Positions 23,177-27,912 of a stretch of DNA of 64,000 bases are shown here, piece after piece. The notes under the pieces were generated by a model. The model was not told the DNA's origin, did not search any database, and saw only the letters and a list, made by a program, of their open reading frames with translations. A program made the translations under genes and the position numbers. The stretch comes from a phage: sequence record PZ445554.1; one strand, written 5' to 3'. Every line of letters starts with the position of its first letter. Within the stretch, counting starts at the first letter, position 1.

Positions 23177-23179
23177 CAA

Positions 23180-23199
23180 TGGGGACCGAAAGGTCCCCA
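23180..23199. terminator. bidirectional terminator between gene 54 and alt.-3
   Basis: UGGGGACC-GAAA-GGUCCCCA hairpin followed by U-rich tract. Confidence 0.8.
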
Positions 23200-23204
23200 T
23201 ATTT

Positions 23205-23495
23205 TTATTTACGGAATGAAATAAAAGCAGCAACTGAAGCAACAGAGGTTTCTTCAATATAAACCTCAATTTTTACCGGAGCTTCTGACTCAAATTTACC
23301 TGTTACTACACCTTGGAAAATACTTTCAGTCTGTTCTGGCTTTGAAAAATTTTCAGAAGGAAAAATTCCGAACTTTTTATCTGTTCCAAAAATTTTGATA
23401 AATTCATCGTAAACTGCTTCATTAAAAGCATTATCAGCAGGAATAACGCCTTCAACTACAAGTTCTTGACCTAAAAAGCGCAAAGAAGATTTCAT
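23205..23495 (-). CDS. hypothetical protein (alt.-3 position)
   Basis: 96-aa ORF; GAGGAA SD; own early promoter. Confidence 0.75.
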   Translation of the reverse strand: MKSSLRFLGQELVVEGVIPADNAFNEAVYDEFIKIFGTDKKFGIFPSENFSKPEQTESIFQGVVTGKFESEAPVKIEVYIEETSVASVAAFISFRK

Positions 23496-23526: not shown

Positions 23527-23556
23527 ACTATAACACAACACGAGTGACTTGTAAAC
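23527..23556 (-). promoter_or_regulatory. early promoter (alt.-3)
   Basis: minus strand GTTTACAAGTCACTCGTGTTGTGTTATAGT: -35 TTTACA, 17-bp spacer, TGn-extended -10 TATAGT. Confidence 0.7.
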
Positions 23557-25613
23557 TACATCTTGAACTTTTTAGACATTCCGTTGATGTTAACCAAAGA
23601 AGCTAAGATTTGAGAAACTTCGTTTTCCTCTTCTTTTGATTCTTCTACAAGGAATTGATTAAATCCAGCCATTGGACGAACTTCACCAGTTTCCATCAAA
23701 TGATCGCCATCATATACTGATTCTTCTAATTGCTCAGAAGGAGGAACGATTGTACCTTCGATTAGATACTTGTTATAAGCAGTTTCTTTCATAAAGTAAG
23801 TACTTACTTTATTAATCTTCAGTAAAATTCCACGTGGTAGAATAACTTCAGCTTCTGATGGAAATCCTGATAAATGACCCGGAACGATAACTTTGATTCG
23901 CTCAGCTCCTTTAATTACCATACCCACGCTAGTTTCTGCATCTTCATTAGCATATGTAGAATGACTACCCATATGCATCAAATCTTCTGCATCAACGGAA
24001 CCTTCTCCTTCACCAGAAAATACTGCGCCGGAATCATCTAGAGCCATATAGTTTTTACCATGCTCACCGAAGATATTTGGTTTAAGCGATGTGGATACGA
24101 AGTTCTTGAAATAGAACATTTTGTTTTCAATGTTATGACGCAAAGTTTTAAATGTAACTTCTTGTCCACGGTAAAGTGTAGTTCCTGGAGGAAGAACTGA
24201 ACCTTTAGCGAATGCAGAATCAAGCGTCTCGATGTGCTTAATAGCACGTTCCATATATTCTTCACGAGTAGAATCAGGTTTACCTAAAAGGAACGAGTTC
24301 ATTTCAACATATGAATCTGCGCAATAATCTTCAATTACATCAGATTCAGCCTGAGTCAGTCCTTTTGGAGTTACTTCGGTGCTTGCGTATTCATATGCCT
24401 GAGCGGCAGATTCATTAATCAATTTATAAATGCCATTCATGACAAATTGAATAATAGCTGTCTTTTCATCTGGCGTAGCTTTAGAACCTTTAACTAAATC
24501 ATTAATAATTTTCTTAATAACATCAAAGCTATTAGAAATATTAATGTCAGCAAGATCGCTTAAAATTTTATCAGTTTTATAATCAAAGAATTCTTTATTC
24601 TTTAAATATTCTTGAGAACCTTGATATGTTATATCGCTCTGCAACTTGATAGATGGATCACGTAAACGCGCATGGGCTAATGCAATATGATTTCGGAAGT
24701 TTTCTAGTTCATAATCGCTAGATTTAAAACGAGAAGCACTTCTCATACCACCGATAGCTCCTTTGCTAAAGTTTGAACCAATCTGAATAACGCCAGAGTT
24801 CATCGGACCTTCTGCTTTATATACCGGAACTTTAGATTCAAACTCTTGATATTTCTTAGCAGCGAAGCTATCACCCTGAAGTGAAGCATCGACAGTAGAG
24901 TATTGAGCTTGTGCTGCTAATCGACGACTAATTTTAGTTTTCTGAATAACAGCTTGATCCGTGCGCTTATCATTTTCTAAGGCAATAGAAGCAGCAACAG
25001 CAACAGCTTTAGGAACAGCATTACCTGTTTTAACGTCTACATAAACATCACCAATCTTTGATTCAACTTTTGTGAATAACTCAGTTGAAATAGGAGGTAC
25101 ACCTGGAATGTCTTCTAATTTGGCATTTTTACGGTAAACCATAATATATGCGTACTTTTTATCATAATCCCAGATTTCCTTTAAAAGAACATATCGACCT
25201 GCTCCTTTAGTACGTACTAAACGGTCAGCAATAACTTGCATTTGACGAGCAGCGCCATTTGTTTTACTTTTTAGTACGCGGAATAGGCATGCGTCGATTT
25301 TATACTGTTTCATTGTTTGAAGAGCAGTATCAAAAACAGCATTAATGACGCCAATTGGATTTCCACCCAAGTTTCTAAGCTTGACTAACGATAATTTCTC
25401 GTTGACACCTATCATTACGATATGCATCATTTTATCGCCTGGCTTAACGTTTTTATTCGTATCACCGCCAGAGGTGTATGTACAAAATCTAAATCCAGGA
25501 AGCACGCTTTCTTCACCGGCTTGAATAGCAAAAATTTGTGGTATTTTATGCTTAGGATTTAAGTTAACAACCGGCGCCGAAGCGCCGTCAAATAATTCTG
25601 TAATAAGTTCCAT
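23556..25613 (-). CDS. Alt-like ADP-ribosyltransferase paralog
   Basis: 685-aa ORF, 3 nt downstream of alt; shares N-terminal block (MELITELFD, CTYTSGGDTN, KYAY) and ART core motifs (TLYRGQ, NFVSTSL, EAEVILPRG) with alt; AAGGA SD. Confidence 0.85.
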   Translation of the reverse strand: MELITELFDGASAPVVNLNPKHKIPQIFAIQAGEESVLPGFRFCTYTSGGDTNKNVKPGDKMMHIVMIGVNEKLSLVKLRNLGGNPIGVINAVFDTALQTMKQYKIDACLFRVLKSKTNGAARQMQVIADRLVRTKGAGRYVLLKEIWDYDKKYAYIMVYRKNAKLEDIPGVPPISTELFTKVESKIGDVYVDVKTGNAVPKAVAVAASIALENDKRTDQAVIQKTKISRRLAAQAQYSTVDASLQGDSFAAKKYQEFESKVPVYKAEGPMNSGVIQIGSNFSKGAIGGMRSASRFKSSDYELENFRNHIALAHARLRDPSIKLQSDITYQGSQEYLKNKEFFDYKTDKILSDLADINISNSFDVIKKIINDLVKGSKATPDEKTAIIQFVMNGIYKLINESAAQAYEYASTEVTPKGLTQAESDVIEDYCADSYVEMNSFLLGKPDSTREEYMERAIKHIETLDSAFAKGSVLPPGTTLYRGQEVTFKTLRHNIENKMFYFKNFVSTSLKPNIFGEHGKNYMALDDSGAVFSGEGEGSVDAEDLMHMGSHSTYANEDAETSVGMVIKGAERIKVIVPGHLSGFPSEAEVILPRGILLKINKVSTYFMKETAYNKYLIEGTIVPPSEQLEESVYDGDHLMETGEVRPMAGFNQFLVEESKEEENEVSQILASLVNINGMSKKFKM

Positions 25614-25616
25614 GAT

Positions 25617-27674
25617 TTATCCTTGAACGAACTTGTAAGGCATGTTTGCAATATCTATGCAAGACGCAATAATTCCAAGAGATGATTCTACTTTCTGTTT
25701 AACATTTGATGAAACAAATGATGCAAAGTCAACTCTGTCTTCTATTTCAATATCACCTGTCATTGTAACCAATTCACCAGTTTCCATTAAATGGTCACCG
25801 TCATAAATTACCGATTCGGTGAGTTCTTCTGTGGTCATAACTTCAGCTTGAATAAGCTTGTTGTTAGTTTTAACTGTTCCATCATTGTAAGATGCATCGG
25901 TTATTTTATTAACTTTGACCATTAATCCACGTGGCAAAATGACTTCCATTTCATTTGAAGGCGCTAAACTTCCACCGGGTAAAACAACATTGACCTTATC
26001 AGCCCCAGTAATAACCCATCCAATTCCAACTAAATTATCGCTAGAATTTACTAGTCCTTCATCAGTTTTATCAATAGAAACGCTTAGACGCTTTTCGTCT
26101 GGTAAAACACCTATAGATGAATCAGTCATCCAAGTACCAAAAATATTTGGATATAATGATGTTGACACAAAGTTTCTAAAATAAAAAACTCGATTTTTTA
26201 CCATTGCTTCGTATATTGAAGGTAACATTCGTTGTGAACGATACAAAGTAATACCTTTTGGTAATCGTTCACCATTTTTAAAGGCTGAATCTAAATTATC
26301 AATAGCTTTTTCTATGTCAGATGCTGTCAAAATACTTGTACGCTCATCTGGATTATATAATCCCAAAAGAGCATTATTTATGTCTACATATCCTGAACCT
26401 ACGTATTCACGAATTCCGCGTTTTTGTGCTGGTGTGTATTTAGATGAATCTTTATTTTCGACTATAGGATGTAATGACCATCCAGCGGTAAGAGCATATC
26501 CACGTAATTCTCTTCGAATAATCTTTGTTTTTATTGCATTCCAAGAATTTTGTACTAACTCATTTGCAGCATCTTGGTTTAAATGCGAATGTTTGTTAAT
26601 ATTTCTTTCAAACCAAGCACCTTTATATTTTTCTAAAGTATCATCGACGATAGAAGCAATAGTTTCTAAGGTTTTTATTGAAGTAATAGATTCTTTTCGT
26701 AATTTTTCTAAAGCTTTATTTTTTATTTCTGCATTAATAATGAATTCTTTATCTTCAGGAATTATAGAAGCTTCTCTGAATGCCATCCCAGCTGTAACAC
26801 TGCTAAGAGCATTCTCTAGTGCAAATCCTGAAGTAGAAATTACCGTTAATTCATTAGAATCAGAAATTAAAGGAGCGTCCGCTGGTTTATTTAATTCTGC
26901 CGCTGAAGCCTCAAATTTTTGAAACATCGGTGTTTCAAATCTAGAAGATTCCAATGATTGACTTTGCGCAATTGCTCTACGTGAAATTTTAACTTTAACG
27001 ATTACAGCTTGATCAGAACGTTTATCATTTTCTTGCGCAATAGATGCTGCAATTGCCTCATTTTTAGTTACTTGGGCTCCAGTATCTTTATTGATATAAA
27101 CATCACCGACCTTCGATTCAACTTTAGTAAAGAGCTCAGTACTAATTTCCGGAACTCCCGGAATGTCTTCTAGTGATACATTTTTGCGATGTATAAGAAT
27201 ATATGCATACTTTTTATCGTAATCCCATAGTTCCTTAAGAAGGACGTATCTGCCACCTGAACGACTACGGATAAGTCTATCAGCAATAACTTGAATTTGT
27301 CGAGCTTGACCAGCGGTTTTAGACTTAAGAATACGAAGCATACAGGCATCAATTTTATACTGACGCATTGTTTGCATCGCAACAGTAAAAACTGAATTGA
27401 TATAATTAATTGGGCTTGGACCAAGACCTTTTAATTTAGCAATTGAACCTTTAGCAGTTAATGTAAAAGGAACAATATGCATCATTTTATCGCCCATCTT
27501 TAAATCACGATTAGTATCACCTCCAGATGTATAGGTACATAAACGAAAGCCTGGTTGTTCAATTGCATCATCAACATGAACTGAAAAAATTTGTGGTATT
27601 TTCTTCTTTGGATTTAAGTTTGTAATCGGAAGAGTAGTATCTTCGTCAAATAATTCTGTAATGAGTTCCATCAT
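25617..27674 (-). CDS. alt: Alt ADP-ribosyltransferase (head-packaged)
   Basis: 685-aa ORF with R / S-T-S / E-x-E ART motifs (TLYRSQ, NFVSTSL, EMEVILPRG); minus-strand late promoter upstream; true start may be the second ATG (27671). Confidence 0.92.
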   Translation of the reverse strand: MMELITELFDEDTTLPITNLNPKKKIPQIFSVHVDDAIEQPGFRLCTYTSGGDTNRDLKMGDKMMHIVPFTLTAKGSIAKLKGLGPSPINYINSVFTVAMQTMRQYKIDACMLRILKSKTAGQARQIQVIADRLIRSRSGGRYVLLKELWDYDKKYAYILIHRKNVSLEDIPGVPEISTELFTKVESKVGDVYINKDTGAQVTKNEAIAASIAQENDKRSDQAVIVKVKISRRAIAQSQSLESSRFETPMFQKFEASAAELNKPADAPLISDSNELTVISTSGFALENALSSVTAGMAFREASIIPEDKEFIINAEIKNKALEKLRKESITSIKTLETIASIVDDTLEKYKGAWFERNINKHSHLNQDAANELVQNSWNAIKTKIIRRELRGYALTAGWSLHPIVENKDSSKYTPAQKRGIREYVGSGYVDINNALLGLYNPDERTSILTASDIEKAIDNLDSAFKNGERLPKGITLYRSQRMLPSIYEAMVKNRVFYFRNFVSTSLYPNIFGTWMTDSSIGVLPDEKRLSVSIDKTDEGLVNSSDNLVGIGWVITGADKVNVVLPGGSLAPSNEMEVILPRGLMVKVNKITDASYNDGTVKTNNKLIQAEVMTTEELTESVIYDGDHLMETGELVTMTGDIEIEDRVDFASFVSSNVKQKVESSLGIIASCIDIANMPYKFVQG

Positions 27675-27694: not shown

Positions 27695-27702
27695 TATTTA
27701 TA
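27695..27702 (-). promoter_or_regulatory. late promoter TATAAATA (alt)
   Basis: minus-strand TATAAATA ~20 nt upstream of alt ATG. Confidence 0.7.
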
Positions 27703-27707
27703 AAATT

Positions 27708-27725
27708 AAAGGCCCGAAGGCCTTT
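27708..27725 (-). terminator. stem-loop upstream of alt late promoter
   Basis: AAAGGCC-CGAA-GGCCUUU hairpin. Confidence 0.55.
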
Positions 27726-27912
27726 AATAATCTATAGGTAAGAGAGTACGATATATTTCAAACTTTGGACCTTTTTCATAAGCATCAAAAGTTTCTGTGA
27801 ATTTATTATAAGCATATGCATCGATAAATTCAATCATGATTTGTGATACAGAAGTAGAAACATCTCCACCTTCTTTTTGAGCCACGACAATTGTTTCTAA
27901 GTAAGCTTTCAT
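27724..27912 (-). CDS. hypothetical small protein between gene 30 and alt
   Basis: 62-aa ORF, ATG start overlapping gene 30 stop (ATGA). Confidence 0.6.
   Translation of the reverse strand: MKAYLETIVVAQKEGGDVSTSVSQIMIEFIDAYAYNKFTETFDAYEKGPKFEIYRTLLPIDY

Follow-up and report, generated by a model that had tools for sequence, protein, structure and literature searches.

The Alt protein of bacteriophage T4 is the textbook example of an injected phage enzyme that reprograms the host, and nearly all of the work on it has been done in T4. About 40 copies of this ADP-ribosyltransferase (ART) are present in the mature head and are injected with the DNA, and the protein targets Arg265 of the RNA polymerase alpha subunit, plus other host proteins. 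The T4 alt gene is a late gene (PMC9697503), and its product, besides being an enzyme, has been described as a protein of the head core; more DNA is packaged by alt- mutants (PMC11404850, PMC3012670). The prohead protease gp21 cuts T4 Alt at ITE-6 and LTE-619, which gives a product of 68.2 kDa as determined by mass spectrometry (Ali et al. 2017; PMC5694885). The E577A substitution in the ExE region abolished ADP-ribosylation (PMC11404850); the one-residue offset between E577 and RefSeq E576 was assumed to reflect the authors' numbering. The T4 RefSeq record also lists two short genes, alt.-1 (61 amino acids, aa) and alt.-2 (67 aa), which are noted as an 'old duplication of the first part of gene alt'. 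Here we describe the corresponding locus in a stretch of phage DNA of 64,000 nucleotides (nt) (sequence record PZ445554.1; the whole stretch is referred to as the window), in which a second Alt-family gene lies downstream of alt. This paralog is called alt2 here, and it probably encodes a late-made, head-packaged and injected arginine ART whose substrate range differs from that of Alt.

The region was 97% identical to many Tequatrovirus (T4-like) genomes, and the window is from a Tequatrovirus. Two minus-strand open reading frames (ORFs) of 685 codons each were listed at 25617..27674 and 23556..25613, separated by a 3-nt gap, ATC. The upstream ORF is alt itself, since its product differed from T4 Alt only by three substitutions and an insertion of two residues, five positions in all. 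It has two in-frame ATG codons, with a GAGG Shine-Dalgarno sequence spaced 2 nt from the first and 5 nt from the second (27671); on the basis of this spacing, the T4 annotation and the published numbering of the ITE-6 cleavage site, alt most likely starts at the second ATG. The pair is flanked by gene 30/alt.1 on one side and by alt.-3/gene 54 on the other, and the baseplate genes are on the opposite strand; this is the position of the Alt family.

alt2 is a full-length second member of the T4 Alt family, with a four-part layout like that of Alt (Table 1). The two proteins were 41% identical over their full length (BLASTP, E = 3e-159), and codon-level comparison gave amino acid identities of ~70% for aa 1-238, 3-23% for aa ~239-415 and 20-57% for the catalytic domain and tail; the ART domains were ~40% identical. 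Both exceeded the gathering cut-off of 23.4 bits for PF03496 (ADPrib_exo_Tox), with 124.1 bits for alt (E = 5.9e-36) and 71.9 bits for alt2 (E = 5.8e-20), and both matched phrog_802 ('Alt-like RNA polymerase ADP-ribosyltransferase') from end to end (E = 6e-262 for alt; E = 1.7e-255, residues 1-685, for alt2). PF26846 (Tevenvirinae_ADPRT) was found on the N-terminal part in precomputed results for a 98%-identical representative, P0001, and for two fusion proteins described below, P0005 and P0003. An NCBIfam scan gave no match for either alt or alt2. An earlier note on this DNA had described two adjacent 685-aa minus-strand ORFs, 3 nt apart, with a conserved N-terminal ~220 aa, almost unrelated central ~250 aa and the catalytic motifs kept in both copies. 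Its coordinates were exact, although the upstream gene itself is likely to encode 684 aa. The N-terminal block was indeed conserved (~70% identity), but it extends over ~238 aa; the central part could not be aligned (hhalign probability of 1.1%), but it is shorter, at ~180 aa.

The catalytic motifs were all as quoted in that note: TLYRSQ in alt and TLYRGQ in alt2, NFVSTSL in both, and EMEVILPRG in alt and EAEVILPRG in alt2. By these motifs alt2 has the complete Arg-Ser-Glu (R-S-E) triad, that is, the Arg, the Ser-Thr-Ser (STS) and the (Q/E)-x-E of the ADP-ribosylating turn-turn (ARTT) loop. Residues R482, S507, S509, E587 and E589 did not vary within A2, and conservation was 90% or more for each of them across 58 diverse family members, which were drawn from 50%-identity clusters. 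A single-sequence search of the Protein Data Bank (PDB) gave no match, whereas a profile search found C3cer and BECa: the Alt-family profile aligned YR and ExE onto the YR and QxE of C3cer (4xsg), and YR onto that of BECa. No Alt structure was found in the PDB copy searched. In the AlphaFold2 (AF2) model of alt2 (predicted local distance difference test score (pLDDT) 71.7; predicted template-modelling score (pTM) 0.60), an alpha/beta N-domain was followed by an all-helical centre and an ART domain. The modelled ART domain matched Vis, C3, Certhrax, CDTa and VIP2 in Foldseek searches (probability 1.0, target TM ~0.6); the best match was Vis 4xzk (E = 1.5e-7, target TM 0.65).

Comparison with T4 showed what has become of this gene in the model phage. 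Across alt and as far as nt ~348 of alt2, T4 was colinear with the window at 97.7% identity; from there T4 skips to the last ~20 nt of alt2. There were two lesions in T4: a 1-nt deletion in an A5 run, which separates alt.-1 from alt.-2, and a 1,699-nt out-of-frame deletion between two 9-bp copies of CTAAAAAGT (window 25274-25266 and 23575-23567). The PHROG families derived from T4 alt.-1 and alt.-2 scored 138 and 129 bits on alt2, compared to 78 and 70 bits on alt. Given the colinearity, the two lesions and the approximately twofold higher PHROG scores on alt2, what is annotated in T4 as alt.-1 and alt.-2 is the remnant of a full-length paralog, and intact alt2 is its ancestral state. The two are better described in annotation as remnants of a full-length paralog than as a partial duplication. 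The exact T4 deletion junction was present in 91 phage records, many of them environmental isolates (the carriers include ACG-C40, HY03, slur03, SG1, F1, G8, RB55 and RB59), and the deletion is a circulating natural allele and not a laboratory artefact. alt2 is conditionally dispensable, having been lost from T4 and about one fifth of its sequenced relatives. The 'T4_ev' records differed at this locus: LR597657 (T4_ev240) had an intact alt2 at 99.3% identity and LR597660 (T4_ev151) had the T4 deletion junction, a contrast which indicates that these evolved or hybrid phages are mosaic at the alt2 locus.

The alt2 centre (window 23900-24900) was present at ≥93% identity in 402 phage records and the T4-type Alt centre in only 177, both numbers being counts of database records that include duplicate and laboratory-derived entries and are not independent lineages. 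In this census the downstream alt2 gene is clearly more widespread than the T4-type Alt centre. A translated search found the Alt family in 1,222 records, of which ~403 had an alt2 ortholog at ≥90% identity. All of the sampled alt2-ortholog records were two-copy, and most other genera had one copy at ~30-35% identity. An IMG/VR scan returned five loci; the census was based on annotated phage records instead. Some record labels were doubtful. The taxonomy of HP3 (NC_041919) is given as Rosemountvirus, though its locus is syntenic with that of Tequatrovirus, and phages labelled 'Pseudomonas' and 'Proteus' (PV654520 and OL741432 are among the flagged records) were ~97% identical here to Escherichia coli T4-like phages.

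Selection was analysed in a set of 12 phages that comprised the window and 11 fetched loci (G4507, T6, wV7, Sfk20, FL33, OES_C-2, Nami, HY01, KNP5, Sf23 and HP3; 93-98% nucleotide identity). The alt2 ORF was intact in 12/12 phages, with a length of 2,058 nt and the 3-nt spacing to alt. The overall ratio of nonsynonymous (dN) to synonymous (dS) divergence was 0.044 (Nei-Gojobori), with a mean dS of 0.19 and a dS of up to 0.29. By region, dN/dS was 0.013 in the N-domain, the most constrained part, 0.093 in the centre, 0.035 in the ART domain and 0.031 in the C-tail. Purifying selection is strong on each of the four parts of alt2, catalytic domain included, and the gene is not decaying. Between alt and alt2, dS was saturated (1.1-1.7) in every region including the N-domain, and in a rough neighbour-joining tree the two genes fell into separate clades, each with relatives from other clusters. 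Since dS between the paralogs is saturated the duplication is old, and since this holds for the N-domain (dS ~1.47) the likeness of the two N-domains has been upheld by selection; recent gene conversion was ruled out as its source.

These data bear on two alternative explanations of alt2. If it were a duplicate en route to loss, transiently intact and with T4 as its fate, the T4-type deletion in 91 records would be expected. The dN/dS of 0.044 at a dS of up to 0.29, the intact ORF in 12/12 loci, the presence of the centre in 402 records and the age of the duplication all argue otherwise, and this explanation, already contradicted by the selection analysis, is almost certainly wrong. In the second alternative alt2 is a pseudo-enzyme or a structural protein of the core, with its ART activity lost or irrelevant, and is retained for a function other than catalysis, either in the head core or in the packaging of DNA. 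Such a role would suit a relative of Alt, itself a head core protein whose loss leads to the packaging of more DNA (PMC11404850, PMC3012670), and would suit the strong constraint on the N-domain. However, structure alone would not conserve R/STS/ExE, and all of the catalytic residues have been kept in an ART domain with a dN/dS of 0.035, so that a purely structural alt2 is very improbable. The earlier note had also taken the downstream copy for a functional paralog with a different target, and had suggested that T4 alt.-1/alt.-2 may be a degraded version of it. The first view is supported by the low dN/dS and by the conservation of the catalytic residues, a different target being likely from the centre and the ARTT loop; the second was borne out by the frameshift and the 1,699-nt deletion. 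The follow-up work that it proposed, namely pairwise and profile alignment, a search for intact copies elsewhere and structural modelling, which predicted an ART fold, pointed the same way.

A scan of the locus found no promoter-like box and no terminator between alt and alt2. The hairpin AAAGGCCTTCGGGCCTTT probably terminates the gene 30/alt.1 transcript, and the hairpin at 23179..23200 is likely to be the 3' end of the alt-alt2(-alt.-3) transcription unit. Across the whole window the late-promoter box TATAAATA occurred 18 times, compared to 8.4 expected from shuffles (0/100 shuffles reached 18); most boxes lay at 2-17 kb on the plus strand, as would fit a late structural-gene block.

The processing sites of Alt were also found in alt2. 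Residues 7-619 of the window Alt have a computed mass of 68.2 kDa, equal to the measured value for T4 Alt. The ITE-6 of alt2 is identical to that of Alt, and LEE-631 followed by SVYDGDHLMETGE aligned column for column with LTE-619 followed by SVIYDGDHLMETGE of T4 Alt. The P1 glutamates, E6 and E631, were each at least 90% conserved in the 58 family members. alt2 therefore has, by sequence, both putative gp21 processing motifs (ITE-6, and LxE ~60 residues from the C-terminus), and its predicted mature form comprises residues 7-631, with a mass of 69.2 kDa. A different possibility is that alt2 is an active but unpackaged ART, which acts late inside the infected cell and is not injected, by analogy with ModA and ModB in early to mid infection. 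No direct virion evidence for alt2 was found, and its translation start is separate from that of alt, as would be expected of such an enzyme. Nevertheless, alt2 has retained the N-terminal propeptide, the N-domain and the two P1 glutamates for gp21, at positions that were mapped in packaged Alt, and co-transcription from a late promoter fits the timing of prohead assembly; we consider an unpackaged alt2 distinctly improbable.

Substrate choice in C3-like ARTs is governed by the ARTT loop. The loop of alt2 (GFPSEAE) has an aromatic-Pro in turn 1, as in C3cer (AYPGQYE), and that of Alt is LAPSNEME. Comparison of the alt2 centre with the centres of T4 and T6 Alt gave an hhalign probability of only 1.1%, in contrast to 98.2% with the centres of Alt proteins from other genera (JS10 and KM16 types). 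This region was modelled by AF2 as helices (pLDDT ~75-90) and is a candidate substrate-selection module. A different substrate range is likely because the centre is non-homologous and both the ARTT loop and the insert after STS differ; judged from these sequence features, the substrate set of alt2 most likely differs at least partly from that of Alt. alt2 might instead be a back-up or dosage copy, packaged and active on the principal targets of Alt (e.g. RNA polymerase alpha Arg265), so that the injected dose of ART is raised. The two proteins share their architecture, processing motifs and the ExE (arginine) signature, and T4 manages without alt2, as expected for overlapping functions. However, the non-homologous centres, the different ARTT loops and the ~40% identity of the ART domains do not favour this explanation, and it would be unexpected for pure redundancy that both genes are kept under purifying selection in the same genomes although dS between them is saturated. 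A back-up role is unlikely.

Further diversity was observed at the locus. The upstream slot is polymorphic and holds either a T4-type Alt of 682-685 aa or a T6/RB32-type Alt of 697 aa (T6, wV7/RB32 and many others). The T6/RB32-type protein has the N-domain and C-tail of the window alt, and its centre and most of its ART domain are a third cargo beside those of T4 Alt and alt2. The variable alt cassette corresponded to window 25815..26957 in comparisons with L003 (T6), L004, L010-L014 and L016. Between T4-type and T6-type Alt, dS was ~0.13 in the N-domain and C-tail, matching the dS inside each type, and ~1.16 in the centre and ART domain, where dN was 0.26-0.66. The T6-type centre and ART domain form an ancient alternative cassette in homogenised flanks, and there are three cargo types at the locus: T4-type Alt, T6-type Alt and alt2.

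Four fusion proteins (P0003-P0006) were found in which the N-terminus of Alt is joined to the remainder of alt2, at ~aa 54, 108, 190 and 224. The four junctions were all different and all inside the N-domain. Two of the fusions were traced to contigs (L018 and L019; Table 1), in which the fusion is the sole ART gene between alt.1 and alt.-3 and has clean nucleotide breakpoints. Because alt and alt2 have no exact match longer than 20 nt, a length below assembler k-mers, assembly collapse was ruled out as an unlikely origin of the single-gene fusions. From their sequences the fusions look like products of unequal crossover in which the alt2 cargo was kept and the Alt cargo was lost, an outcome which suggests that the two cargoes are not simply additive and which also argues against a back-up copy.

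As a tentative extension, the alt locus could work as a cassette system with two slots, driven by recombination and supplying injected effectors; alt2 would be its most widely retained cargo and one with a novel substrate class. A constant N-terminal head-incorporation domain and C-terminal propeptide may flank interchangeable 'centre + ART' modules of at least three ancient types, and the T-even phages may shuffle, fuse or drop these modules to suit host targets or host defences. alt2 would then act on a class of substrate that has yet to be reported for Alt, possibly a defence component; its neighbour alt.-3 is a CmdTAC-escape locus.

To return to the reading that we favour, of alt2 as an injected ART with its own substrate range, the only late promoter, at 27702-27695, would drive alt and alt2 together, and a separate Shine-Dalgarno sequence would serve for the translation of alt2. 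The protein would enter the prohead core by means of the shared N-terminal propeptide and N-domain, and would be trimmed by the gp21 prohead protease after E6 and E631 to a mature protein of ~69 kDa. It would then be injected with the DNA and catalyse the NAD+-dependent ADP-ribosylation of host-protein arginines at the very start of infection. Several points weigh against this proposal. No direct evidence was found for alt2 in virions, for its cleavage or injection, or for its enzymatic activity, and literature on the virion proteomics or biochemistry of the second copy, including that of two-copy phages, was not found. The ART insert (aa 517-555) and the C-tail were of low confidence in the AF2 model, and the geometry of the Arg/Ser/Glu pocket is a putative one, derived from the fold match and the motif alignment. 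The same alt2-loss allele recurs in 91 records, many of them natural isolates, so the gene is not essential, and the census counted records and not lineages. T4 Alt has, in addition, been reported to have many substrates (Depping 2005, as related in citing papers), so some overlap between the targets of Alt and alt2 is likely.

Table 1. Features of the alt/alt2 locus in the window (PZ445554.1) and of two fusion loci, the latter in the coordinates of their own contigs.
Feature	Coordinates	Strand	Details
Hairpin AAAGGCCTTCGGGCCTTT	27708..27725	minus	between alt.1 and alt; terminator annotated at same place in NC_054919
T4 late-promoter box TATAAATA	27695..27702	minus	24 nt before alt ATG; only such box on minus strand in locus
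alt	25617..27671	minus	684 aa from second ATG; first-ATG ORF begins 27674
alt layout			N-domain aa 1-238; centre 239-410; ART 411-619; C-propeptide 620-684
alt motifs			R478; S503-T-S505; E574-M-E576; ITE-6; LTE-619
alt2 Shine-Dalgarno AAGGA	25620..25624	minus	within last alt codons, 6 nt before alt2 ATG
alt stop TAA	25617..25619	minus	
alt2	23556..25613	minus	685 aa; full-length Alt paralog, intact counterpart of T4 alt.-1/alt.-2
alt2 N-terminal domain	24900..25613	minus	aa 1-238; contains propeptide MELITE, ITE-6 at 25596..25604
Left copy of 9-bp direct repeat CTAAAAAGT	25266..25274	minus	left edge of T4-type deletion
alt2 central region, all-helical (predicted)	24369..24899	minus	aa 239-415
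alt2 ART catalytic domain	23721..24368	minus	aa 416-631
alt2 ART motifs			R482 24168..24170; S507-T-S509 24087..24095; E587-A-E589 23847..23855 in ARTT loop HLSGFPSEAE
alt2 ART insert			aa 517-555; low-confidence in model
alt2 predicted gp21 cleavage motif L629-E-E631	23721..23729	minus	followed by C-terminal propeptide aa 632-685, beginning SVYDGDHLMETGE
alt2 cleavage motif and C-terminal propeptide	23559..23729	minus	
Right copy of 9-bp direct repeat CTAAAAAGT	23567..23575	minus	right edge of 1,699-nt T4-type deletion
Bidirectional terminator hairpin	23179..23200		between gene 54 and alt.-3; terminator annotated in NC_054919
Fusion locus L018	4001-6055		Logan SRR24155011
Fusion locus L019	4001-6061		ENA ERZ27282683

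The N-domain of alt2 was modelled separately by AF2 (pLDDT 84.5, pTM 0.82). At the sequence level only 69 clusters (50% identity) contained it, in every case at the N-terminus, and 56/58 such proteins had an ART domain; a general delivery module for varied cargo was ruled out on this basis. The N-domain model (ma93af7d3794c) gave strong Foldseek matches to Alt-family models in BFVD. Weaker BFVD matches (E = 1e-8 to 1e-4, TMq ~0.5) were to large uncharacterised proteins of other myoviruses (Dickeya RC-2014, Erwinia phiEa2809, Shigella MK-13, Vibrio VP-1/Kuja and Agrobacterium Atu_ph07), some of which were annotated with Zeta-toxin, deaminase or ParB/Srx domains. As a lead only, the predicted fold may be a shared N-terminal fold that bears other cargo.

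The plus-strand neighbours of the pair are genes 29, 48 and 54; on the minus strand the order includes alt.-3 (DUF5498), the two ART genes, alt.1 (PF24647), gene 30 (DNA ligase) and 30.1-30.3. The product of alt.1 (27724..27912, minus strand; 62 aa) matched PF24647, 'Phage blade protein' (E = 7.5e-29), and the gene ends in a stop codon that overlaps the hairpin lying ahead of the late promoter of alt. Directly downstream of the alt/alt2 pair, alt.-3 (23205..23495, minus strand; DUF5498, phrog_1739) encodes 96 aa, the wild-type length, and has its own early-type promoter-like site, TTTACA-17-TATAGT, at 23555..23527. In T4, mutants with a C-terminal extension of Alt.-3 escape the CmdTAC defence system (PMC11618068). 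An antisense 202-aa ORF inside alt (26314..26922, plus strand) is probably spurious, with nothing in its support.

The alt/alt2 tandem pair is real and is already known at the annotation level. It is annotated in RefSeq ('Alt-like RNA polymerase ADP-ribosyltransferase' twice) and in many (hundreds of) GenBank records. Nolan et al. (2006) listed alt.-1/alt.-2 and a full-length alt duplicate in 44RR (PMC1524935), and a 2026 paper described the same pair in 6phi13/SHFML-11, at 43% identity, and speculated on target divergence (PMC13600099). The T6 ortholog of alt2, AXN58232, carries the record note 'apparent insertion in alt.-2; also similar to alt', and that of Sf23, gp43, is noted as 'distinct from ... 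T4 Alt'. These two proteins, RB32ORF194c and the RefSeq second copies were 97-99% identical to alt2, with 685 aa, the same position and the same 3-nt spacing. Since the annotated orthologs of T6, RB32, Sf23 and RefSeq differ from alt2 in nothing of substance, the feature cannot be called new. Experimental work on alt2 was not found in the literature.

The present analysis adds the origin and spread of the T4 deletion, the evidence of selection, the conserved processing sites, the three-cassette picture and the natural fusions. T4 belongs to a minority of Tequatroviruses in which the second gene has been deleted, and most sequenced relatives, including T6, encode and perhaps inject an Alt-family enzyme that is so far uncharacterised and absent from the model phage. 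The natural variants provide ready-made genetic contrasts with which to address the targets of alt2 and any role in host range or counter-defence: phages with both genes, phages with the T4-type deletion, fusions with the alt2 cargo only, and the two upstream alleles.

Among known systems, T4 Alt (gpAlt, NP_049811), a head-packaged, injected NAD+:arginine mono-ADP-ribosyltransferase, is of the same family, locus and four-part layout as alt2. They share the R / STS / ExE motifs, ITE-6, the processing motif LxE followed by S(V)(I)YDGDHLMETGE, and the late transcription unit. The two differ in that they are 41% identical overall, the centre (aa 239-415) has no detectable homology and the insert between STS and the ARTT loop is different. 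T4 alt.-1 and alt.-2 (NP_049810, NP_049809) are the same gene as alt2, truncated in T4 by the frameshift and the deletion. ModA and ModB of T4 are likewise R-S-E ARTs that act on host transcription and translation proteins; unlike alt2, they are ~200 aa in length, are made after infection and are unpackaged, and they have no N-domain, centre or propeptides. The R-S-E ARTs of bacteria (C3-like exoenzymes, Vis, Certhrax and the enzymatic components of iota, CDT and VIP2) have the same Arg, STS and (Q/E)xE motifs as alt2 and the ART fold that is predicted for it (Foldseek probability 1.0). However, these toxins are only 14-21% identical to alt2, they are secreted bacterial proteins with other delivery domains, and in C3 the motif is QxE (asparagine), compared to ExE (arginine) in alt2.

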